Shown: piece by piece, positions 18,782-42,216 of the stretch
How the letters are laid out: every line of letters begins with the position of its first letter
Numbering within the stretch: the first letter of the stretch is position 1
From: a virus
Direction: 5' to 3' (one strand)
DNA length: 42,216 nt
Virus record (IMG/VR): IMGVR_UViG_3300045988_121331
Span: 1 to 42,216 of that record
The notes under the pieces: model-generated
The model's database searches: none
What the model saw: only the letters and a program-made list of their open reading frames with translations
Told to the model about the DNA's origin: nothing
Translations under genes and position numbers: made by a program

Positions 18782-18825
18782 TATAATTCCACCTCTCTTA
18801 AATATCAGCCATAAGCCATACCGCC

Positions 18826-18855
18826 ATTATAGCACCCCGCCCCCGCGCTTGTCAA
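18826..18855 (-). promoter_or_regulatory. promoter TTGACA-18-TATAAT (TGc extended -10)
   Basis: The minus strand reads TTGACAagcgcgggggcggggtgcTATAAT, upstream of ORF 18494-18781. Confidence 0.6.
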
Positions 18856-18936
18856 CCTTTGCATAAATTCTGCATTTTTATTCATTTTCTACGCATAAAC
18901 CAGTAAAAAAACAACTTTGTGAATTTTTAAAATTTT

Positions 18937-19006
18937 GGGGGGTAACCCGACCTCCGGCTGCCCGGTCCGGGATAGGGTTCGGGGTGGGTTTTGCCCCGGG
19001 AACGCC
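18937..19006. other. GC-rich island (about 70 bp) in AT-rich non-coding DNA
   Basis: Sequence is GGGGGGTAACCCGACCTCCGGCTGCCCGGTCCGGGATAGGGTTCGGGGTGGGTTTTGCCCCGGGAACGCC. It contains the palindrome CCCGG-T-CCGGG and no ORF. Confidence 0.6.
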
Positions 19007-19073
19007 TACAAATAAAGCGTTTTCACGTTACAAATACGAACGATTAAGAAACAAAAACATATTTTTAACACGA

Positions 19074-19105
19074 TTTAGCACTTTAGCGCTTTAGCACTTT
19101 AGCAT
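19074..19105. repeat. four tandem 8-bp repeats TTTAGC(A/G)(C/T)
   Basis: Reads tttagcac tttagcgc tttagcac tttagcat head-to-tail, 65 bp from the GC island. Confidence 0.8.
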
Positions 19106-19388
19106 AATGAAGGTGACAGCCTTACTTTTCTATTTAATTATCATTACATTTTAATTATATATATGTATATGCCTATAATATAAGTATGTGCAGTGTATGA
19201 GTATATTATAATATAGTCTTGTGCTTATATGTATAGGCTTATACAGACAATAACGATATAATAACACGGTGCAGGGCTTAAGGCTACTACAGAACACGCA
19301 AGGGCGTATATAATATTGGTGGTATACTCTGCATATTATGAATAAATAGGCATATTAAAATATTTTATTTTAAAATTAAAAATTTTAC

Positions 19389-19417
19389 TTGACAAATATA
19401 TTTATATTTGATATAAT
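19389..19417 (+). promoter_or_regulatory. promoter TTGACA-17-TATAAT (TGa extended -10) for the plus-strand operon
   Basis: Reads TTGACAaatatatttatatttgaTATAAT, preceded by phased A/T tracts. Confidence 0.75.
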
Positions 19418-19449
19418 AAAGACAACGAAAGGAAAGGAGAAAAAACAAG

Positions 19450-19566
19450 ATGAAAACAGAAGATATTAAAAAGCTGCTGCATTTGGTTATTGAACTTTTG
19501 AAACGGTGTAAAACCGTCGACGAAGCTATAAAAGCAATATGCAACGCTTACGACATCCACGAATAA
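19450..19566 (+). CDS. 38-aa leader ORF
   Basis: Encodes MKTEDIKKLLHLVIELLKRCKTVDEAIKAICNAYDIHE, with a GGAAAGGAG RBS. It is followed by two GC-rich hairpins. Confidence 0.35.
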   Translation: MKTEDIKKLLHLVIELLKRCKTVDEAIKAICNAYDIHE

Positions 19567-19640
19567 CAAACGCCGAGCCGGGCGGCATAACCCGGCAGCC
19601 TTCGGGCTTGTTGATAAAATAATTAAAAGAGGCTTTCAAA

Positions 19641-19874
19641 ATGGAAAGATACACACAAAAACAATTAAAAAATCTTGTAAACACTGGCGCGGCTGTTGAT
19701 ATTACCCGCGGAAACAACGAAACCCGCGAACAAATAATTAATGAAGAAGGATATTATACCCAAATAGGATATAGCGCGGGCGTTTATGGTTGTAATGGTA
19801 TGTTGTTAAAAGGTCATAAAACGGGCAAATTATACGCAGTTACAAGCAACACAAGCGCAATATATATATTTTAA
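19641..19874 (+). CDS. hypothetical protein (77 aa)
   Basis: AAGAGG RBS. Conserved-looking C-terminus (GYSAGVYGCNGMLLKGHKTGKLYAVTSNTSAIYIF). No family identified. Confidence 0.55.
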   Translation: MERYTQKQLKNLVNTGAAVDITRGNNETREQIINEEGYYTQIGYSAGVYGCNGMLLKGHKTGKLYAVTSNTSAIYIF

Positions 19875-19976
19875 TTAGCAGAGTGGCGGCGGCTTTGGCT
19901 GCCGTTAATGCGGCAGGGCATACGGTCACAAGCCCCGAAAGCCCGAAAGCATATATTTTATGTTGAGGTGTAAAAA

Positions 19977-20369
19977 ATGAAAACAAACAATAAAAAAGCA
20001 CGCGAGAACATACGCAAATATATTATTGCAAACTTTACCCCGGAGGGCTACACGGACAACCCGCCGCAAGAGTTCCCCAAAATAGCCCGCTTTATTCTTT
20101 CCACTTTCAGAAATGAAAAATACAACACCCCGGAAGACTTCCGCTATTATAGGAATAACGAGCTTGCAGCTTTCGCGGCTTGGTGCGCGGGGCTTTGCGG
20201 TGTTCTTGATACTTGTTATTTTTATAACCGTTCCGCCGTTGATGACCTCGGCACAATTCTTGAAGAAACAGAGGAAGAAAAAACGCGTTATACAGAAGAA
20301 CAAGCCGAAAACACATTAACATTTTTAATTTATCGCGAGTTAATAAAAGGGGCTGCGGATAATGTATAA
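19977..20369 (+). CDS. hypothetical protein (130 aa)
   Basis: GAGGTG RBS. Overlaps the FtsK-like gene by 8 nt, suggesting translational coupling. Confidence 0.6.
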   Translation: MKTNNKKARENIRKYIIANFTPEGYTDNPPQEFPKIARFILSTFRNEKYNTPEDFRYYRNNELAAFAAWCAGLCGVLDTCYFYNRSAVDDLGTILEETEEEKTRYTEEQAENTLTFLIYRELIKGAADNV

Positions 20370-21354
20370 CGGCGAACAATTAGCGCAGGCGCTGACCGTT
20401 TTCGGTCTGCCCTGCGTTTTTAAAGAAACGAAACAAACCCCACGCAACACCATATATTATTTTGATTTTACCGACTGGGGCAAAGTCACAGCGGGCAGGC
20501 GTAAAGCAGCGCTTGACCGCCTTTCACTATATGCCAAACATCAATTTAATTATATTGATAGTAATATATCACATTTCGCAATATATCACGCTGAAAACAA
20601 TTATAATATTGTCCCGCTTTTCGGGCTTGCCTTGCCTGCTGATGATACTTATAAATTCATAGCGGGCATAAACGAGGACGGCGAACAAGTCAACATTTCA
20701 TTAGATGAAATGACACACGCACTTATTGCAGGTACTACCGGCAGCGGTAAAAGCGTATTTTTAAAAAGCCTTTTATATTCTTTATTAACTACCAATAGCC
20801 CGAATAAGATAAAATGTGCTATTATAGATAAAAAGCGCAGTTTAAATTATTGGAGCAGGGCGGCGCACTGTCTCAGAGTGGCAAACGATGATATTTCGGC
20901 AATAGCTTTATTAAATACTTTTCAAAAAGAAATGTATAACCGATATGAAGAATTACAGCGCCGAGGGCTTGAAAAAAATATCGGGCTGTTTCCTAAGTGG
21001 GTATTGATAATTGATGAGCTGGCGGATTTAATGCTAACTGACCGCAAAACAGAAATTGAAAACAAGCTTGTTTCGCTTTGTCAGCTCGGGCGCGCTGCCG
21101 GTATTCATTGTGTGCTGTGCACCCAGTCGCCCCGCGTTGCTGTTGTCAGTGGTTTAATTCAGGCGAACACCCCGACAAAGATTATATTTAAAACAGCGAA
21201 CACGCGGGAAAGTGTATTGTGTTTAGGTCATTCGGGAGCGGAAAAGCTGCTCGGAAATGGTGACTGCCTTATAAAATTGCCCGACAGAGTAAAAGATATT
21301 AGAGTACAAGCGCCGTTTGCAAGTGATGAAGACTTTAGAAACTGTATAGAATAG
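20362..21354 (+). CDS. FtsK/SpoIIIE-family DNA-translocase-like ATPase (alpha+beta domains, no gamma domain)
   Basis: Walker A (GTTGSGKSVFLKSLL), Walker B (WVLIIDELADL) and the arginine-finger region (CTQSPRVAVVSG). No membrane anchor and no C-terminal winged helix. Confidence 0.85.
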   Translation: MYNGEQLAQALTVFGLPCVFKETKQTPRNTIYYFDFTDWGKVTAGRRKAALDRLSLYAKHQFNYIDSNISHFAIYHAENNYNIVPLFGLALPADDTYKFIAGINEDGEQVNISLDEMTHALIAGTTGSGKSVFLKSLLYSLLTTNSPNKIKCAIIDKKRSLNYWSRAAHCLRVANDDISAIALLNTFQKEMYNRYEELQRRGLEKNIGLFPKWVLIIDELADLMLTDRKTEIENKLVSLCQLGRAAGIHCVLCTQSPRVAVVSGLIQANTPTKIIFKTANTRESVLCLGHSGAEKLLGNGDCLIKLPDRVKDIRVQAPFASDEDFRNCIE

Positions 21355-22418: not shown

Positions 22419-23114
22419 TTATAAAATTTTTAATTGTTGCATTTGATTTTGAAGCCTATCATTAGCTAATTTATAATAATGCTTGCTTAATTCAAAACCA
22501 ACAAATTCAAAGCCTTCGTCATAACACGCTACAAGGCTTGAAGCGCTCCCGGCGTGTGTATCTAAAATCTTATCGCCTTGTTGAGCATATTTACCTAACA
22601 ACCACTTATAAAGCGCCACTGGCTTTTGTGTGGGGTGTATGCGTATTTCTTTATTTCTCATATCTTCTTGTAACATACCGTTCCATTTAAACCTAAAAAT
22701 TCTTACTGCAGTTTTGAAAGAAGTCCATGCAAGTTCACAGTCAGCAAAATCAGTATCGCCATTGCGTTTATCCCACACTATCCAGCAATGGCTATCAATG
22801 GGGATACGACTAATAAAATGATTAGCCCCCCATATAATTTGATTTTTAGAAACTCTCATAAGTTCGTCAAAATATTCTTTTTCGGGGGGGTTAATATCAT
22901 CACCGGCAAAACTTTCATAACTTTTAGCATAACATTTGGCGTTGCTTTTACTTTGCAAAAATCCTATCCTTTTTCCTCGAGATTTCGCTTTGTCCCCATT
23001 TTCACCTATGCCATACGGCGGGTCAACAATAGCTAAATCAAAATATTTATCGGGGAATTGTTTCATTCCGTCCATACAATCCATATTGTAGAGTTTGTTA
23101 AGCTCTAACATCAT
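22419..23114 (-). CDS. DNA methyltransferase, N6-adenine/N4-cytosine beta class (DPPY)
   Basis: Motif IV (IVDPPYGIG) lies N-terminal to motif I (ILDTHAGSASSLVAC). ATGA overlap with the recombinase stop. Confidence 0.85.
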   Translation of the reverse strand: MMLELNKLYNMDCMDGMKQFPDKYFDLAIVDPPYGIGENGDKAKSRGKRIGFLQSKSNAKCYAKSYESFAGDDINPPEKEYFDELMRVSKNQIIWGANHFISRIPIDSHCWIVWDKRNGDTDFADCELAWTSFKTAVRIFRFKWNGMLQEDMRNKEIRIHPTQKPVALYKWLLGKYAQQGDKILDTHAGSASSLVACYDEGFEFVGFELSKHYYKLANDRLQNQMQQLKIL

Positions 23115-23710
23115 TCTACCCCCTTTAATATTCTGCTTACCGTAGCTATGCTTATATTTAATATATCGGCTATGTCTCTATAACTCTTATGCTCGGATTT
23201 TAAGTCAAACACTTGTTGCCGAATTTCGTCTGATATTGTTTTCGGTCTGCCGAGTGTAACACCCTGCTGTTTTTTTCTTTGCAACGCGTTGGATGTATTA
23301 TAACCTATTTGTCTTTTCAAAAATTCGTCTTGTATAAAGAATTGAGATATAGTCATCCAAGTATACGGGTTCATTTTTTCCCCGCCCTCTAATGTTATAC
23401 CATTGCTCAAAAACTTTACGGTGGCTTTTTTCTGTTGCGTTATTAAATCAAGCATTTCAAAGCAATCGATATAATTTCTGCCAAAGCGTGATGTTTCAGT
23501 AAGGCAAACAATGTCTGTTGGTTCGAGACATTCAAGCATTTTGTTAAACTGTTCACGCTGATTACCTTTAACGCCACCGCTGATATGTTCCTCAAAAATC
23601 ATATCAAACTCATATCCGCTATTTTCAAGCAAATACATCTGTCGCTCATAATCTTGTTTCGCTGATTTTTCGGTTGTAGATACTCTACAATAAGCTATTA
23701 CTTTGCACAT
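23111..23710 (-). CDS. small serine recombinase (resolvase/invertase type)
   Basis: 199 aa with the N-terminal catalytic motif (AYCRVSTTEKS), SRFGRN, and a C-terminal HTH (SYRDIADILNISIATVSRIL). Confidence 0.9.
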   Translation of the reverse strand: MCKVIAYCRVSTTEKSAKQDYERQMYLLENSGYEFDMIFEEHISGGVKGNQREQFNKMLECLEPTDIVCLTETSRFGRNYIDCFEMLDLITQQKKATVKFLSNGITLEGGEKMNPYTWMTISQFFIQDEFLKRQIGYNTSNALQRKKQQGVTLGRPKTISDEIRQQVFDLKSEHKSYRDIADILNISIATVSRILKGVE

Positions 23711-29338: not shown

Positions 29339-29367
29339 ATAATAGCATATAGTAATTTATTTGTCAA
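29339..29367 (-). promoter_or_regulatory. promoter TTGACA-17-TATTAT (TGc extended -10)
   Basis: The minus strand reads TTGACAaataaattactatatgcTATTAT. It shares 27 identical bp with the early promoter region. Confidence 0.6.
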
Positions 29368-29386
29368 GAATATTTTTAAATATTTT
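29360..29386. repeat. 27-bp repeat, copy A (-35 box plus upstream A/T tracts)
   Basis: tttgtcaagaatatttttaaatatttt is identical to 38580-38606. Confidence 0.85.
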
Positions 29387-29392
29387 TTGGGG

Positions 29393-33664: not shown

Positions 33665-34362
33665 AAGTTCCTATATCCCGAATAAGTTTTATCATTAGGC
33701 TGTTTGTTGCTTGAAAACTTAAAGTCTGTAATAGGGAAGAATGACCTCCAGCTTCTCGCAATTGCTTCTTTCAAATAATCGTCGACAGACAAGTTGCTTT
33801 GCTTCGCAAGTTTATCTAATTTTTTTATATTAAGTTCGATTGAACGTTCAGTATTTGCCGCCCTTTGAGCTTTCCGAACTTTGAGCCATTCATGAAGTAG
33901 GTCGAGAGTGGTTTCGTTCTGCGTGTAACTTTCAAGAATTTTTTCAATCGGATTTTCTTTATTTATTTCTTTTTTTATTTCTTTATATTTATTATTATCT
34001 AATTTATTATTGGGTAAAGTTTCTTTACCTATATCGGGTAAAGTTTCTTTACCTCCGAGGTAAAATTTCTTTACCCCCGGTAAATTTGCTTTATACCTGT
34101 TAAATACCACTCCGCTGATTTTGCTTTCGTTTTTAATTATAAACTCATTTCCACATAATTTTTTCAAACTTTTAATAACCGTAGGTTTACTTGCTCCAGT
34201 AAAATCGCATAGATATCCAATGCCACCACTAAATTCCGTCTCGCCGTCTTGCGAAAAGCCGTAGATTATAGCATATATTTGTAAATCAATACCTTTAAGG
34301 TTGAGCTTATTCAACATCCAGCCTTGTATTTGATAAAAATTTTCATCTTTTATTCTGCCCAT
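33661..34362 (-). CDS. replisome organizer / replication initiator with N-terminal wHTH
   Basis: Contains FYQIQGWMLNKLNLKGIDLQIYAIIYGFSQDG...ASKPTVIKSLKKL. The preferred ATG at 34362 lies 8 nt after AAGGAG. The gene contains the iterons. Confidence 0.7.
   Translation of the reverse strand: MGRIKDENFYQIQGWMLNKLNLKGIDLQIYAIIYGFSQDGETEFSGGIGYLCDFTGASKPTVIKSLKKLCGNEFIIKNESKISGVVFNRYKANLPGVKKFYLGGKETLPDIGKETLPNNKLDNNKYKEIKKEINKENPIEKILESYTQNETTLDLLHEWLKVRKAQRAANTERSIELNIKKLDKLAKQSNLSVDDYLKEAIARSWRSFFPITDFKFSSNKQPNDKTYSGYRNL
34013..34097. repeat. four phased palindromic iterons GGTAAAG-TTT-CTTTACC (candidate phage origin)
   Basis: Units lie at 34013-34029, 34037-34053, 34059-34075 and 34079-34097 (the last is degenerate). 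They sit inside the organizer gene and encode the GKETLPDIGKETLPNN repeat. Confidence 0.6.
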
Positions 34363-34495: not shown

Positions 34496-34524
34496 ATTAT
34501 ATCACATATAAGCCATAAAGTCAA
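34496..34524 (-). promoter_or_regulatory. promoter TTGACT-17-TATAAT (TGa extended -10) upstream of the replication genes
   Basis: The minus strand reads TTGACTttatggcttatatgtgaTATAAT. Confidence 0.6.
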
Positions 34525-34611
34525 TATCTTTTACGTTTGGTTTTGCGGTTATATCGCTCCACAAAATCAATTTTCATTCCCCGGACATCATTTTCGGATT
34601 TAACCTTGACT

Positions 34612-38363: not shown

Positions 38364-38528
38364 TTAACCACCCACCTTTCTAAGAATTATTTGTTTCCCC
38401 ACGGTCTCTGCCGTAATCAGCACTGTATCGCCACCGTCAATGCCAAGGGCTTCCCTTATTTCTTTTGGCAGATTGACCGTAACATTAGTACCACTTTTCT
38501 GTACTTTTGCCGTTGCTTGCAATTTCAA
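38364..38528 (-). CDS. AbrB/MazE/SpoVT-family DNA-binding protein (first early gene)
   Basis: 54 aa, with a TTG start 7 nt after AAAGGGGG. The VNLPKEIREALGIDGGDTVLI looped-hinge motif is present. Below the track cutoff. Confidence 0.6.
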   Translation of the reverse strand: MKLQATAKVQKSGTNVTVNLPKEIREALGIDGGDTVLITAETVGKQIILRKVGG

Positions 38529-38558
38529 TTTTTAACCCCCTTTCTTGATTGCAAACTA

Positions 38559-38587
38559 ATTATATCACACTAAAAATAGTTTGTCAA
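38559..38587 (-). promoter_or_regulatory. early promoter TTGACA-17-TATAAT (TGa extended -10)
   Basis: The minus strand reads TTGACAaactatttttagtgtgaTATAAT. Three 10-bp-phased AATATTTT tracts lie upstream (38588-38620). Confidence 0.75.
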
Positions 38588-38606
38588 GAATATTTTTAAA
38601 TATTTT
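38580..38606. repeat. 27-bp repeat, copy B
   Basis: Identical to 29360-29386. Confidence 0.85.
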
Positions 38607-38663
38607 CAAATATTTTTTAGAAAAAGTTTTTTGAGAAAATTCGCACTTTTTTTATTTTTACTA

Positions 38664-38692
38664 TTGACTTTATCGATTATATAGGGTAAAAT
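38664..38692 (+). promoter_or_regulatory. divergent promoter TTGACT-17-TAAAAT
   Basis: Reads TTGACTttatcgattatatagggTAAAAT and points away from the early operon into ORF-free DNA. Confidence 0.55.
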
Positions 38693-39190
38693 AAGCATAT
38701 CCAAAAGGGAAACGGTGTATGCATGGCATTGTTCCTGATATATTGTTTCTCTTAAAGAAGTAAGATTATATGTTTGTACCTGCATTACAATCATATGGTC
38801 TTTTTCTTTTTGCACATTTTGAGGTCAATGTAAAAACCTCTGCCGTCTCATCAACGGTATGTATCGGGTTAAAGCCGAGTTTATTATCGATTTCCGTTTA
38901 GAAAAACCGCCGTGTCCCATTTGGGAGTAGGGTATGTTCTTGCGGGTGATACCACACTGTTTACAGCACGACCGAGGCAGATTAAGAACATAAACGAAAG
39001 TGACGATTGGCTCTGTAGGTATAGCCACTTTCCCTATCTATTTTGCATTTTTAATGCTTGTAGGTAGGGAAAACTTTGCTCTGATTTCACCATAGGTATA
39101 AACCACTAAACTTTAAGTTTCTACAACCTTTTTGCTAACCTCAGCAATATGGTTGCCGCAAAAATCGCAATATCAATAATTTGTTTTTAG
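38693..39190 (+). ncRNA. candidate non-coding transcript (ORF-free, about 0.5 kb)
   Basis: Downstream of promoter 38664-38692. The longest plus-strand ORF is 48 aa and has no RBS. There is a strand-specific hairpin at 39032-39069. The unit is bounded by the convergent terminator at 39191-39223. Confidence 0.3.
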
Positions 39191-39223
39191 AGACAAAAGA
39201 AAAAGCGCCCCGAAAATGGAGCG
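39191..39223 (-). terminator. intrinsic terminator ending the 42131-39247 cassette
   Basis: The minus-strand RNA forms CGCUCC-AUUUUC-GGGGCG (6 bp, one G:U) followed by CUUUUUCUUUU. Confidence 0.55.
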
Positions 39224-39246
39224 ACTTTTTCAATGGTATTAGCTAT

Positions 39247-39546
39247 TTATCTATCGGTCATATATTTTATAATGGCTGATTTATTTGCATAATAGCGTTT
39301 GCACTTATCCCATTCGTCTAAATCTTCGTCCGAAAGAGGCATAATAGTGTTCAACTCGGAACAATATTGTTCAGTCCATTCATACCAATTCGCGGCGTGC
39401 TGCATTTCCTGCATTGCCATTTCACGGAATTTTTGTGCTTTGGTGGCGTTGCCTTTCATTTTTTCGCCGATATAATCTTCGGCATACTCGACTGCGCCGT
39501 CTAATTCTTCCGCTATATGGTCAACCATTTTTCTAAATTTTTTCAT
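39247..39546 (-). CDS. hypothetical helical protein
   Basis: 99-aa ORF, the last gene of the cassette. Confidence 0.5.
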   Translation of the reverse strand: MKKFRKMVDHIAEELDGAVEYAEDYIGEKMKGNATKAQKFREMAMQEMQHAANWYEWTEQYCSELNTIMPLSDEDLDEWDKCKRYYANKSAIIKYMTDR

Positions 39547-39736
39547 TGCCTATCAACTCCAATATTTTATTGATTTTTTCGTCTTGCTGCTGCAAATGCT
39601 GATGAATTTCCTCGGCTACTCTGTTGTTATCTTCTTGAATATCGCTTATGCCAAATAATTTGGATTGATTTTGCACTTGCATAATAAAAGATAAAACCGT
39701 TAATAAGTCGAGTAATTCAAATTCTGTGCTATTCAT
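39533..39736 (-). CDS. hypothetical coiled-coil protein (paralog-like to 30654-30893)
   Basis: 67 aa, overlapping both neighbours. Confidence 0.45.
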   Translation of the reverse strand: MNSTEFELLDLLTVLSFIMQVQNQSKLFGISDIQEDNNRVAEEIHQHLQQQDEKINKILELIGNEKI

Positions 39737-39929
39737 TTGTTACCAACTTCTCTATGACATCTGTTTTTCCTTTTAGTTCGGAAAGTTCTTTTTCTATTTC
39801 CGAAATATTTGAACTTCCCAAGCCACCAAATGCCACCAATAAAAGTGTTAACACAATAGTGAAAGGCAAATCTGTGTCGGAATGATTTTCAATATTGGAA
39901 CAAACTTTTTCTTTTTCCATTTTAATCAC
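39729..39929 (-). CDS. single-TM small protein
   Basis: 66 aa with TM segment LPFTIVLTLLLVAFGGLG followed by a coiled coil. Confidence 0.45.
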   Translation of the reverse strand: MIKMEKEKVCSNIENHSDTDLPFTIVLTLLLVAFGGLGSSNISEIEKELSELKGKTDVIEKLVTNE

Positions 39930-39930
39930 C

Positions 39931-40302
39931 TCACGATATAGCCGTCAAATTATTTGTCGGAGCGCAAGCAACATCACCGCATAAACGGAACACGCCGCCT
40001 GTTGCGGTAGTTCTTACAACGGTGCTGTATTTAGTGCGCGGACGGATAGAACAAGCCGTTGCCTGTGTGCAATTCCTTTTCTGTAAAGGATAGGCATTGC
40101 CCGTTCCCATTTGAATATACACAGGTGCGCCGATAATGGTATCTGTCGGGATAGTCTGTGCTACAACTATACAATATTTCTGACAGTCGTTATAACTGCC
40201 CTCGGGGATTTGAATATACAGACTATCGTTTTCAGCGTTAAATGATACTGCCGTAGATATAATTAAATTTTTGCATAATCTACAAGTATTTTTACAAGCC
40301 AT
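39931..40302 (-). CDS. hypothetical Cys-rich protein
   Basis: 123 aa with 10 Cys, including CKNTCRLC. Its own AAAGGAG RBS lies after the internal terminator. Confidence 0.5.
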   Translation of the reverse strand: MACKNTCRLCKNLIISTAVSFNAENDSLYIQIPEGSYNDCQKYCIVVAQTIPTDTIIGAPVYIQMGTGNAYPLQKRNCTQATACSIRPRTKYSTVVRTTATGGVFRLCGDVACAPTNNLTAIS

Positions 40303-40319
40303 AATTAAAAACTCCTTTT

Positions 40320-40356
40320 ATAAAAATTGCCCCTTACAGCGTTTGCCATAAGGGGC
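40320..40356 (-). terminator. internal intrinsic terminator/attenuator within the cassette
   Basis: Perfect 8-bp stem (GCCCCUUA/UAAGGGGC) followed by AAUUUUUAU. Confidence 0.55.
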
Positions 40357-40384
40357 TTGAAATCACGCTGTTAAAGCGGAAACA

Positions 40385-40993
40385 TTACATACAACCGCAA
40401 GTATTGCCGCCACAGAACGGGGACGGTCCTGCGTTATATGCGTAAGTTGTCGGATAGCGCACTACCCCGCACATCGCCGACTGTAACTGAAGCTGATTGA
40501 TTTGATTCTGCATATCAGCCATTCTATTACCGTTAATGGCGTCAAGAATTTTCTGTGTCTGCTCGGTTGTGGTTGCGTTAATAGAGGCAGTATTAATTGC
40601 GCCGTTGTAATTTACGCTATCTATGCCGCGCTGGGTGGTGCAGCAACATTCAGCCAACTGCTGTTGAGTTGTGTTAAAATTGCGGAGAGTTTCGTAACCA
40701 AGGTTACAAATACCATTCTGCAATCCCATATAATCAGCTGAAAGGCTGTCGCTCAATCTTCCGACTGCGTTTTCAAGGTTGTTAAAATTCATAGCATTAC
40801 ACAACCCTGCTTCCGTAACGGGCGTGCCATTCATAACAGGCGGTCTATTGCCAAAACCGCCAAAGCCACCATTCATAATGCCGAGAAGAATAAGCAACCC
40901 GAATATCCAAGCGCCGTCACCACCAAAGCCGAAACCGCCGTCATTGTTTCTTGTTGCCGCCGCTACATCGGCAAGCGAATAAGAATTTTCCAT
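40385..40993 (-). CDS. Gly-rich membrane protein with Cys-rich C-terminus
   Basis: 202 aa. A GGFGFGGDGAWIFGLLILLGIMNGGFGGFG segment resembles tiny YjcZ-like sporulation TM proteins. Also carries a CCC triplet and a C-terminal FCGGNTCGCM. Confidence 0.5.
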   Translation of the reverse strand: MENSYSLADVAAATRNNDGGFGFGGDGAWIFGLLILLGIMNGGFGGFGNRPPVMNGTPVTEAGLCNAMNFNNLENAVGRLSDSLSADYMGLQNGICNLGYETLRNFNTTQQQLAECCCTTQRGIDSVNYNGAINTASINATTTEQTQKILDAINGNRMADMQNQINQLQLQSAMCGVVRYPTTYAYNAGPSPFCGGNTCGCM

Positions 40994-41052
40994 AGTTTTT
41001 TCTCCTTATAAATTTATTTATGCTCGGTTTTGCGCGCTAAAACCGTTTGCAC

Positions 41053-41271
41053 CTATTTCATTGCAGATTTTATCTGCTCCATAAAACTGTTTACATCAAT
41101 GCCTTGCTGTTGGCACATATTTGTAACTAATTGCTGAGGGCTTATCCCTCTACCCCTTGTCATTTGCATAATCATTTTCATTTGGGGGCTATTGACATTT
41201 TGCATAATACCTTTAATCTGCGCTATCATTTGAGGATTTAGCCCTTGATTTTGGAATAGACTGCTCGGCAT
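41053..41271 (-). CDS. Gln/Met-rich small protein
   Basis: 72 aa with NPQ/SPQ repeats. The start is uncertain because it overlaps the upstream ORF by 59 nt. Confidence 0.4.
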   Translation of the reverse strand: MPSSLFQNQGLNPQMIAQIKGIMQNVNSPQMKMIMQMTRGRGISPQQLVTNMCQQQGIDVNSFMEQIKSAMK

Positions 41272-41617
41272 ACTTCTTTACCTCGTTTCTTAATTCTTCA
41301 AATTCTGATTTTGTAACATAATCATTTGTAGGCTTTGTGCCTGTTAAGTCAATCTCGGCAAACCGATAGGCTTTAATAGTTGGGAAACCGCCGTCATCGG
41401 CTGACTTTATATAGAAAATATCATCGTTTCCGTCAAACAAAGCAACTGTTTCTCTCGGCATTACTTGAAAAGCTTTTGCACCCTCTAAACCGTTTACCCT
41501 TGTAAGGCTCTTTATTTGCCCCTGTAAGCCGTTTTGTGAGTTAGGTATATAATTATATTGATTACCGTTAAAACCGCCGTATGCGTTGTTATACGGAAGA
41601 TTTTGATAGTTAAACAC
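41213..41617 (-). CDS. hypothetical protein (Asn/Gly/Tyr-rich N-terminus)
   Basis: 134 aa with a GTG start 10 nt after GGAG. Has a conserved-looking core (VNGLEGAKAFQVMPRETVALFDGNDDIFYIKSADDGG). Confidence 0.5.
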   Translation of the reverse strand: MFNYQNLPYNNAYGGFNGNQYNYIPNSQNGLQGQIKSLTRVNGLEGAKAFQVMPRETVALFDGNDDIFYIKSADDGGFPTIKAYRFAEIDLTGTKPTNDYVTKSEFEELRNEVKKYAEQSIPKSRAKSSNDSAD

Positions 41618-41768
41618 TGTCTTTCATCTCCATTTCAAATTTAAGCATTGCACATTCGTATAATTCTAATAACTTTCCTTGCTCTTTCGCTTGCTCTATG
41701 CGGTCAATTACTTCTTTTCGGCTCATACCGTATTTTGTCTGTAATGCCGCTTTCAAAATATCATTCAT
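41610..41768 (-). CDS. hypothetical 52-aa protein
   Basis: AGGAG RBS 9 nt upstream. Below the track cutoff. It is the first ORF after promoter 41791-41837. Confidence 0.4.
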   Translation of the reverse strand: MNDILKAALQTKYGMSRKEVIDRIEQAKEQGKLLELYECAMLKFEMEMKDSV

Positions 41769-41790
41769 TGGTAATCACTCCTTTGTTTAT

Positions 41791-41837
41791 ATTATAACTC
41801 TAAATAAAACAAAAAAATCGCACGATAAACGCACGAT
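41791..41837 (-). promoter_or_regulatory. -10-only promoter (TATAAT) with two upstream ATCGTGCG direct repeats at 11-bp spacing
   Basis: The minus strand reads ATCGTGCGtttATCGTGCGatttttttgttttatttagagtTATAAT. There is no recognisable -35 box. Repeats are at 41819-41826 and 41830-41837. Confidence 0.45.
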
Positions 41838-41844
41838 TTACGCA

Positions 41845-41887
41845 TAAAAACTCCCCCACGGCGAAAGTATTTAAAATACCGTGGGGG
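41845..41887 (-). terminator. intrinsic terminator after the HTH gene (end of the late operon)
   Basis: Perfect 9-bp stem (CCCCCACGG/CCGUGGGGG) followed by AGUUUUUAU. Confidence 0.75.
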
Positions 41888-41930
41888 AATAGAAAGGAGG
41901 TGTCCGCCGATTGCGGAATTTCCGACATAA

Positions 41931-42131
41931 TTAAATTTCTTTTAAAATTTTCTTGCAGATAGAATTTATTCGTTTTGATACCGTTCTATCGCAAATATTT
42001 AACTTAATAGCAATTTGCGTTATTGAATAACCTTTACGGCGCAAATTAAATATTTCGATTTCTTCTTCGCTGAACGGACAGCGTTCAAGAAACCTTTGGT
42101 ATTCATCATATGAAAAGTCAAACTTATTCAA
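41931..42131 (-). CDS. GerE/LuxR-type (sigma region-4-like) single-domain HTH regulator
   Basis: 66 aa with EEEIEIFNLRRKGYSITQIAIKLNICDRTVSKRINSICKKI. TTG start 10 nt after AAGGA. Lies directly downstream of the lysis genes across the genome junction. Confidence 0.65.
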   Translation of the reverse strand: MNKFDFSYDEYQRFLERCPFSEEEIEIFNLRRKGYSITQIAIKLNICDRTVSKRINSICKKILKEI

Positions 42132-42216
42132 CGCCGCACCGTCCTTTTTAGACGGGTAATTGTAATTTTGCGCTTTATTCTTTTGCGATTTTTAGGCTTT
42201 ATTCTTATGCTTTTAA
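42098..42216. repeat. terminal direct repeat, copy 2
   Basis: Exact 119-bp duplicate of positions 1-119. It contains the 5' end of the HTH gene 41931-42131. Confidence 0.9.

Follow-up and report, generated by a model that had tools for sequence, protein, structure and literature searches.

Introduction

The CI RNA of phage P4 and the c4 RNA of phages P1 and P7 are non-coding RNAs found at the early control region of these temperate phages. They are 70-80 nt in length, are processed from the transcript of the early operon itself and pair with repeated target sites within that operon, and the sequence of their hairpins varies between relatives. RNA II of the ColE1 type is an untranslated transcript of about 550 nt produced from its own consensus promoter, with 5' stem-loops that vary in sequence while their structure is kept. 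The ROOL and GOLLD RNAs are non-coding RNAs of several hundred nucleotides and of unknown function that are often carried by Firmicutes phages (PMC12286853). The non-coding PE1-T ori region of lactococcal Ceduovirus (c2-type) phages is several hundred bp long, free of ORFs and RBSs and served by a sigma-70-type promoter of its own; it lies between phage gene blocks and occurs as distinct sequence types, each more than 90% conserved (PMC7150918).

The unit described here lies at the early promoter of a human-gut phage and resembles each of these systems in part. PE1-T is its closest described analogue in layout, as the unit likewise has its own promoter, contains no credible ORF or RBS, sits between gene blocks and occurs as distinct sequence types, but the likeness fails on direction, on essentiality and on the presence of a separate origin. 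Specifically, the c2 transcript runs in the direction of the early genes, with PE2 following it, whereas our unit diverges from the early promoter; PE1-T is found in every member and serves as the origin of phages that lack an initiator of their own, whereas the unit is absent from 35 of 41 relatives and its phage encodes an O-like initiator with iterons, a DnaB-like helicase and an SSB. With the P4 CI and c4 RNAs it shares a predicted non-coding RNA at an early control region and hairpins that vary between relatives. In contrast to them, the predicted RNA is about 530 nt long, would be made from its own divergent promoter rather than processed from the early operon, and had no complementary sites in a repeat search and a duplex scan; no lysogeny genes were found in this phage. 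Like ColE1 RNA II, the predicted RNA of about 0.53 kb carries 5' hairpins that are variable in sequence and stable in structure. However, no antisense promoter of the RNA I type faces these hairpins, there is no sign of priming, and the phage that carries the element has its own initiator, helicase and iteron origin. The predicted length of several hundred nucleotides and the phage location recall ROOL and GOLLD, but the unit matches no Rfam 15 model (E <= 10) and has far less demonstrated structure.

Results and discussion

Genomic setting of the unit

The window, that is, the whole stretch of 42,216 nt that was analysed, is a complete circular phage assembly of about 42 kb with an exact 119-nt repeat common to both ends. 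The phage is uncultured and comes from the human gut, its host is probably a gut bacterium of the class Clostridia, and its portal protein shares no more than 26% identity with the portal protein of any phage isolate. Almost all of its genes are carried on the minus strand. The early promoter drives an AbrB/MazE-like gene together with the recombination and replication genes downstream, in the order exonuclease, RecT, SSB, O-like initiator and DnaB-like helicase; these are followed by methyltransferases, the terminase, portal, capsid and tail genes and then by the lysis genes. Beyond the wrap-around, a minus-strand operon of variable small genes (42131-39247) ends at a terminator (39223-39206), and the gap between this terminator and the early promoter is the element studied here. 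Its features and those of its surroundings are as follows.

38587-38559, minus strand: early promoter, TTGACA-17-TATAAT with extended TG, 12/12 match (context, outside the cassette)
38528-38364, minus strand: AbrB/MazE-like gene, 54 aa, the first gene after the early promoter
38588-38663: A/T spacer, 76 bp between the two -35 boxes
38625-39186, plus strand: presence/absence cassette, 562 bp as measured against "empty" relatives
38664-38692, plus strand: unit promoter, TTGACT-17-TAAAAT, 10/12 match
38705-38753, plus strand: hairpin H1, 21 predicted pairs, G-U-rich, -18.4 kcal/mol, z -4.8
38756-38807, plus strand: hairpin H2, 20 predicted pairs, -17.8 kcal/mol, z -5.9
38808-39186, plus strand: sequence-conserved core, 0.39 kb
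38770-38901, plus strand: 43-aa ORF starting inside H2, without SD sequence
38934-38993, plus strand: 19-aa ORF, the only one with an SD-like sequence (GGGAG, 6 nt upstream)
38606-38815, minus strand: 69-aa ORF running through the plus promoter
38825-39028, minus strand: 67-aa ORF
39016-39098, plus strand: TAGGTA cluster, with boxes at 39016, 39061 and 39093
39029-39040 / 39061-39072, plus strand: stem-loop with arms of 12 nt, 92% complementarity
39198-39231, both strands: bidirectional intrinsic terminator (stem 39206-39223), common to the convergent minus-strand operon
34013-34076: iteron origin within the initiator gene, made of three AGGTAAAGAAAYTTTACC iterons and an AT-rich stretch
23111-23710: resolvase-type recombinase, 199 aa

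The original prediction, made from the window sequence, had placed this unit where a repressor gene would be expected and had referred to the lysis-lysogeny switch of temperate siphoviruses. This framing was not borne out: neither a tyrosine or large-serine integrase nor a CI/Cro-type repressor was found among the phage ORFs scanned, which contain a 199-aa resolvase-type recombinase (23111-23710), no related prophage was present in the GTDB species genomes, and about 85% of the close relatives have only a spacer of 190-260 bp at this position. The alternative of an att/ori-type locus fared no better. The phage origin is of the lambda type, with iterons within the initiator gene, and no integrated copies were found that would define an att site. 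As a candidate iteron origin the unit itself was rejected, as AGGTAAAGAAAYTTTACC occurs only at 34013-34076 and has no counterpart in the unit even when 3 mismatches are allowed. The first early gene, which is AbrB-like, may plausibly be a regulator.

Distribution of the cassette

In order to follow the unit through related phages, a comparison set of about 45 related phage contigs was used, drawn from human gut metagenomes. Relatives were retrieved as contigs encoding exact flanking proteins or close AbrB-like variants, and 41 distinct ones had a readable junction. The cassette was present in 6 of these 41, about one in seven, so that the unit is carried by a minority of this human-gut siphovirus lineage. 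It always occupies the same genomic position, with at least three different right-hand genes and two early-promoter/AbrB types, as expected for a module exchanged by recombination, and it lies at the margin of an accessory region that is hypervariable.

An 8-bp direct repeat, TTTTTAGA, bounds the cassette (38614-38621 and 39184-39191), and in many non-carriers (e.g. L004, L005 and L007) position ~38624 is joined directly to ~39187, inside this repeat. Other non-carriers lack 38619-39079, others ~38646-39160, at the microhomology AAAAT[T/C]CGCA, and others again ~38639-39143, which gives at least four different deletion endpoints. In each of the four loss forms the plus promoter is gone, together with the core or the greater part of it; because several of these forms keep different leftovers of the cassette, they point to independent deletions of a full-length ancestor, not to precise excision of a mobile element. 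A partial loss was seen in contig L038, in which an internal deletion (38961-39092) took 132 nt of the core while the promoter and both hairpins were kept. The frequency of cassette loss indicates that growth is possible without the unit in many settings.

Three kinds of rearranging element were set aside. A MITE was rejected, as the unit has no terminal inverted repeats, no second genome copy and no GTDB match, and at least four empty-site endpoints were seen despite the TTTTTAGA repeat. An inverton was rejected since the only flanking inverted repeat is of 11 nt and low complexity (38800-38810 / 39195-39205) and all 14 independent cassette copies are collinear with the window. A DGR template was set aside because no second copy resembling a variable region exists in the genome.

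Promoters and terminator

The two divergent promoters and the 76-bp A/T spacer between them are present where the original prediction had located them, as is the convergent terminator. The early and unit promoters are the two best promoter-like sites in the 36.5-42.2 kb region. Such sites are no commoner in this region than in shuffled sequences (18 found, 18.6 expected), and the plus promoter is therefore not supported by its score alone. Across 10 aligned copies of the promoter and core, both hexamers of the plus promoter are invariant and four spacer positions vary. Furthermore, the unit promoter is identical at 23 of 29 positions, spacer included, to the promoter that precedes the operon of the O-like initiator and DnaB (34526-34498, minus strand), which argues for a working promoter of the phage's own class. 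Transcription of the unit is predicted to start near 38699.

The spacer contains AATATTTT three times in exact 10-bp phase (38589, 38599 and 38609), and the part left of ~38624 is retained in phages without the cassette. With their phased repeats, the back-to-back promoters would resemble a regulated divergent pair. The upstream block of the early promoter and its -35 box are duplicated at 29360-29388, spacer positions 38588-38606 being repeated at 29368-29386. Contig L051 combines hairpins of the window type with an early promoter region of the L006 type, and the hairpin type thus does not co-vary with the early leader.

At the other end, the terminator hairpin folds on both strands (-14.1 and -17.7 kcal/mol) and has a U tract on each side. 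The predicted RNA would end there, giving a length of about 0.53 kb.

Two predicted hairpins at the 5' end of the proposed transcript

The best fold statistics of the unit belong to hairpins H1 and H2, which were absent from the original prediction and which together make up the first 110 nt of the predicted plus-strand transcript. The stretch that they occupy (38700-38799) is only 68-80% identical to the window in L006 and L029, a divergence of 20-32%. Pairing was nevertheless retained in 96.3% of cells across eight sequences, against 42-60% when the partners were slid by 1-3 columns. Four pairs are changed on both sides (e.g. A-U to U-A, A-U to C-G and A-U to G-C) and nine carry a one-sided change, mostly between G-U and A-U or G-C. 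Three of the two-sided and five of the one-sided changes fall in H1. In H2, an apical A-U pair is replaced by G-C in L006 and L029, the 7-nt apical loop is variable and the 3' arm is a U-rich run, CUUUUUCUUUU.

The covariation score of the two hairpins was 0.151, compared with 0.110 +/- 0.011 in shuffled alignments, and none of 500 shuffles reached this value. Their consensus fold was stronger on the plus strand (-40.7 kcal/mol) than on the minus strand (-18.8 kcal/mol) because many of the pairs are G-U. On evidence that is good but thin, since only three lineages contribute changes, H1 and H2 thus appear to vary in sequence while their structure is conserved by compensatory and G-U-compatible changes, on the plus strand only. 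The covariation is limited to these first 110 nt.

The conserved core

The core behaves differently from the hairpins. Between carriers, its 38800-38999 part is 94-100% identical (50-nt bins). Compared with the window in 50-nt bins, L029 shows 40-88% identity over the flanking genes and 94-98% over this part of the core; in L006 the corresponding figures are 89-98% for the flanks and 96-100% for the core. The core is therefore more conserved than adjacent coding sequence in both contigs, although the high identity could partly reflect recent recombinational spread and not constraint. In L053 the cassette is 95% identical even though the AbrB-like neighbour has only about 65% amino-acid identity. 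Core site 38826 shows all four bases among the copies.

Folding of the core is moderate, with a z-score of -2.7 on each strand. Some of its pairs show compatible one-sided changes and several are broken, and the substitutions are too few for a covariation test. The original prediction had described a 9-bp stem with a U:G pair; this stem is present and extends to 12 nt. It encloses a GCATT/AATGC hairpin (GCAUU/AAUGC in RNA), contains the U-G pair and has a folding energy of -21.3 kcal/mol (plus strand) or -15.3 kcal/mol (minus strand). Its lower 3 pairs are not conserved; L029 has G-U in place of an A-U pair, and L051 has two broken pairs. The three TAGGTA boxes listed above, likewise predicted originally, are among only 14 copies of this hexamer in the 42-kb window and fall within 83 nt. 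Boxes 1 and 3 extend to TAGGTATA(G/AA)CCAC, and in L029 both read TAGTTA through the same G-to-T change. Within the unit the GC skew of the plus strand becomes positive (+0.02, where the genome averages -0.12), an uncommon state in this phage genome.

Coding potential and database searches

From the promoter to the terminator, the longest plus-strand ORF is of 51 aa, from a GTG start (38912-39067), and the next of 43 aa. The original prediction had given 48 aa; the lack of a credible ORF was confirmed. The two minus-strand ORFs, one of which crosses the promoter, are as previously described. None of the seven unit ORFs of at least 30 aa had a Pfam or PHROGs match, even at E <= 1, and no real homologue of the 67-aa ORF was found among 1.84 billion representative proteins. 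The 47 core substitutions are spread evenly over the codon phases (15/16/13), and the synonymous fraction comes to about 0.3 whichever of the six frames is read; a 3-nt periodicity, which the original prediction had named as a sign against its non-coding reading, is thus missing from the core. The two minus-strand ORFs are joined into a single open frame, 136-152 codons long, in L051, L052, L053 and some of the short contigs.

A search against Rfam at the gathering threshold gave no match in the unit, and the whole-window search returned only Twister-P5 (19877-19938). When 38400-39400 was searched at E <= 10 against Rfam 15, which covers ROOL, GOLLD, ribozymes, CRISPR repeats and ctRNAs among others, the best hit scored 19 bits, compared with thresholds of 39-100, and all hits were short and of low complexity. 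The families suggested for comparison in the original prediction (ROOL, GOLLD and similar) therefore did not account for the unit. No tRNA or tmRNA was found by ARAGORN. Neither 50,697 phage records nor 72,556 plasmids yielded a meaningful match to the unit by blastn, and an exact-word scan found no copy in 185,579 GTDB species genomes. Exact-word scans did recover the unit from one IMG/VR contig and one further metagenome contig, L029.

Within the phage genome, a short-word blast of the unit returned only paralogues of the promoters or UP elements, and no repeats of at least 15 nt were found that are oriented to pair with minus-strand mRNAs. In an RNAduplex scan of 59 translation start regions, shuffled RNAs scored as well as the unit or better. 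Kissing contacts of 6-8 nt between the RNA and phage transcripts might still form.

Interpretation of the unit

We propose, with moderate confidence, that the unit is an accessory gene for an independently transcribed, structured non-coding RNA of about 0.53 kb that would act in trans. Conserved promoter hexamers, plus-strand hairpins with compensatory changes, the lack of a coding signal and a core more conserved than its flanks all speak for the functional RNA that the original prediction had offered as one option. As no described family matches, this RNA would be a candidate new family within phage-encoded non-coding RNAs.

Two other readings would make the unit protein-coding. It could be a cryptic or decaying minus-strand gene, starting with GTG at 39028 and encoding 136-152 aa, that would be whole in some phages and broken in the window, the plus promoter then being antisense or incidental. 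The stop-free frame of 139-146 codons in L051, L052 and L053 is indeed longer than expected from dinucleotide shuffles (P of about 0.001-0.005), lies on the strand of almost all phage genes, was predicted by gene callers in 15 contigs and has a codon-usage score within the top 4% of spurious open stretches. That score is nonetheless below that of every real gene of the phage. In the window type, the commonest, a TGA cuts the frame at the fusion point; L029 has a TAA and a 1-nt frameshift, L038 is shortened by its 132-nt deletion, and all four bases occur at the stop site, 38826. The distribution of substitutions over codon positions 1/2/3, 14/29/28, is unlike that of a coding sequence, and the frame has no SD sequence, no Pfam or PHROG match and no homologue. 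AlphaFold2 gave a mean pLDDT of 36.6 with no residue at or above 50. Moreover, the frame crosses the conserved promoter, and the changes in its C-terminal third come as pairs that compensate each other in the RNA. The original prediction had held that an intact gene in homologues would make the unit a decayed gene; the open frame does occur in some variants, but it does not behave like a gene, and we consider this explanation unlikely. On the plus strand, the RNA could instead be the structured mRNA of a small peptide or of a type I toxin-antitoxin-like locus, encoding the 43-aa or the 19-aa ORF. A long hairpin hides the start codon of the 43-aa ORF, an arrangement found in type I toxin mRNAs, site 38826 with its four states falls in that frame on a Val codon position that is fourfold degenerate, GGGAG precedes the 19-aa ORF, and such loci are often accessory, as the cassette is. 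However, the 43-aa frame is frameshifted in L029, lacks an SD sequence and has N-terminal residues that change freely; a clear transmembrane segment is missing from both peptides, the 19-aa one lacks hydrophobic character, and the substitutions show no periodicity. The search for an antisense promoter or antitoxin RNA was negative: within 38600-39230 the minus strand has a single promoter-like site (-35 at 38703-38698, -10 at 38681-38676), which overlaps the plus promoter and is directed away from the RNA. A peptide or toxin locus is accordingly the reading to which we give hardly any credence.

The unit might also work as DNA or not work at all. A DNA-level element with a transcript working in cis, either a transcription-activated secondary origin of the PE1-T kind or a protein-binding locus acting through the TAGGTA boxes, would fit an ORF-free segment that has its own promoter and lies between gene blocks as in the Ceduovirus ori (PMC7150918). 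Consistent with it are also the kinship of the unit promoter with that of the replication operon, the G-to-T change shared by TAGGTA boxes 1 and 3 in L029 and a core that folds equally on both strands. Against it, the phage has a lambda-type iteron origin in its initiator gene, together with a DnaB-like helicase and an SSB, and the iterons of that origin are missing from the unit even with 3 mismatches allowed. Being absent from about 85% of relatives, the unit cannot be an essential origin, and its hairpins are strand-specific, with many G-U pairs; we therefore regard a DNA-level role as improbable. There is also a slim chance that the unit is a functionless remnant, e.g. a decayed module with a leftover promoter that is spread by recombination and is being lost. 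The many independent deletions, the minority of relatives that carry the cassette and its place at the edge of the hypervariable region would all agree with this, and recent transfer would likewise give very high core identity across backgrounds. Yet single cassettes combine a 20-32% divergence of the hairpins with unchanged hexamers and a core at 94-100%, a sign of uneven constraint and not of uniform youth; compensatory changes preserve the pairing of the hairpins, and in L006 and L029 the core is conserved beyond adjacent coding sequence.

Returning to the trans-acting RNA gene that we favour, its expression and action could be as follows. Host RNA polymerase of the sigma-70 type would start near 38699 and, as the unit promoter is a near copy of the replication-operon promoter, the RNA would accompany early or middle genes. 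The first 110 nt would fold into two 20-bp hairpins, selected for shape alone, which would probably act as 5' stabilisers or as RNase III-type processing sites. The sequence-constrained 0.39-kb core would be the working part, and transcription would stop at the bidirectional terminator common to the converging operon. The RNA may then bind a host or phage factor in trans. The dispensability of the unit, its repeated loss and its place beside a hypervariable region suggest, as a guess, an accessory function that is useful under some conditions, for example in host takeover or counter-defence, and not an essential lytic step.

A more specific version, which we consider very improbable, is an RNA control or immunity module located where temperate relatives keep a protein repressor. 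The 0.5-kb RNA would then act on early expression or on superinfecting relatives, with the fast-evolving loops of H1 and H2 setting specificity and the conserved core serving as effector scaffold. Such a module would amount to an RNA "repressor" in a Gram-positive-type siphovirus without a protein repressor.

The cataloguing of phage non-coding RNAs is poor, and the small number whose workings are understood have brought new principles of regulation to light. The unit, if real, would represent a new family of long phage non-coding RNA. It comes with natural controls, in the form of near-identical phages with and without the cassette, and the cassette splits cleanly into a part constrained in structure only and a part constrained in sequence; for these reasons its function is directly testable. 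Lastly, gene callers sometimes predict a "hypothetical protein" of 100-150 aa antisense to the element, and annotations of this position should be read with caution.

Genome form and replication origin

The two ends of the window (positions 1-119 and 42098-42216) carry an exact direct repeat of 119 nt, which makes the window a whole-genome assembly that is circular or circularly permuted. A lambda-type replication origin was located on the minus strand within the gene for an O-like initiator, at 33950-34092. It comprises three near-identical iteron copies of AGGTAAAGAAAYTTTACC at 34013-34076, together with a degenerate fourth copy, and is adjoined by an AT-rich stretch. No tyrosine or large-serine integrase was found in the ORFs scanned. 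The phage encodes a 199-aa small serine recombinase (23111-23710, minus strand), in which a resolvase catalytic domain is combined with a helix-turn-helix (HTH). This enzyme could serve in multimer resolution, in inversion or in an unusual form of integration.

Related promoters and a duplicated upstream block

Comparison of the promoter of the replication operon (34498-34526, minus strand) with that of the cassette, the gene-free unit proposed to encode a non-coding RNA (promoter at 38664-38692, plus strand), revealed 23 identical positions out of 29, spacer counted. Judged by their sequences, the two promoters are paralogues. The block AAAATATTTAAAAATATTCTTGACAAA, which is made of the upstream block and -35 box of the early promoter (38582-38606), was also found in a second copy at 29360-29388, where it precedes a second TTGACA-17-TATAAT promoter at approximately 29.3 kb. 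This duplicated block probably serves both of these promoters as an UP element or operator, and the AbrB-like early protein is possibly its binder.

Variable sites within the cassette

In the diverged cassette copy of the related phage contig L029, and in this copy only, the first and third of the three TAGGTA boxes share the same G-to-T change, giving TAGTTA, at sites matching window positions 39019 and 39095. The chance of an identical G-to-T change in both boxes was estimated by us at about 1%. The shared change hints that a single partner reads the two boxes or that gene conversion has taken place between them. At site 38826 all four bases were seen among the cassette copies, with the surrounding core being 94-100% conserved. 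In a small hairpin, this site provides the first base of the loop. Within the minus-strand pseudo-ORF it occupies the middle of the stop/Leu/Ser codon, and for the 43-aa plus-strand ORF it is a Val position with fourfold degeneracy.

Other features of the genome

A type-P5 twister ribozyme was matched at 19877-19938 on the plus strand, with a score of 51.8 bits against an Rfam gathering threshold of 37.6. It lies downstream of an ORF-poor stretch of about 1.1 kb (18800-19900) and immediately upstream of the sole plus-strand coding cluster, which consists of:

19977-20369, plus strand, 130-aa ORF
20362-21354, plus strand, FtsK/SpoIIIE-like ATPase

The block that separates the lysis genes from the cassette, 39247-42131 in the window with its counterparts in the related phage contigs L004-L012, is a hypervariable accessory region. 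Entire sets of small genes are exchanged there among close relatives, and in some of these the exchanged genes include ones for HNH endonucleases.
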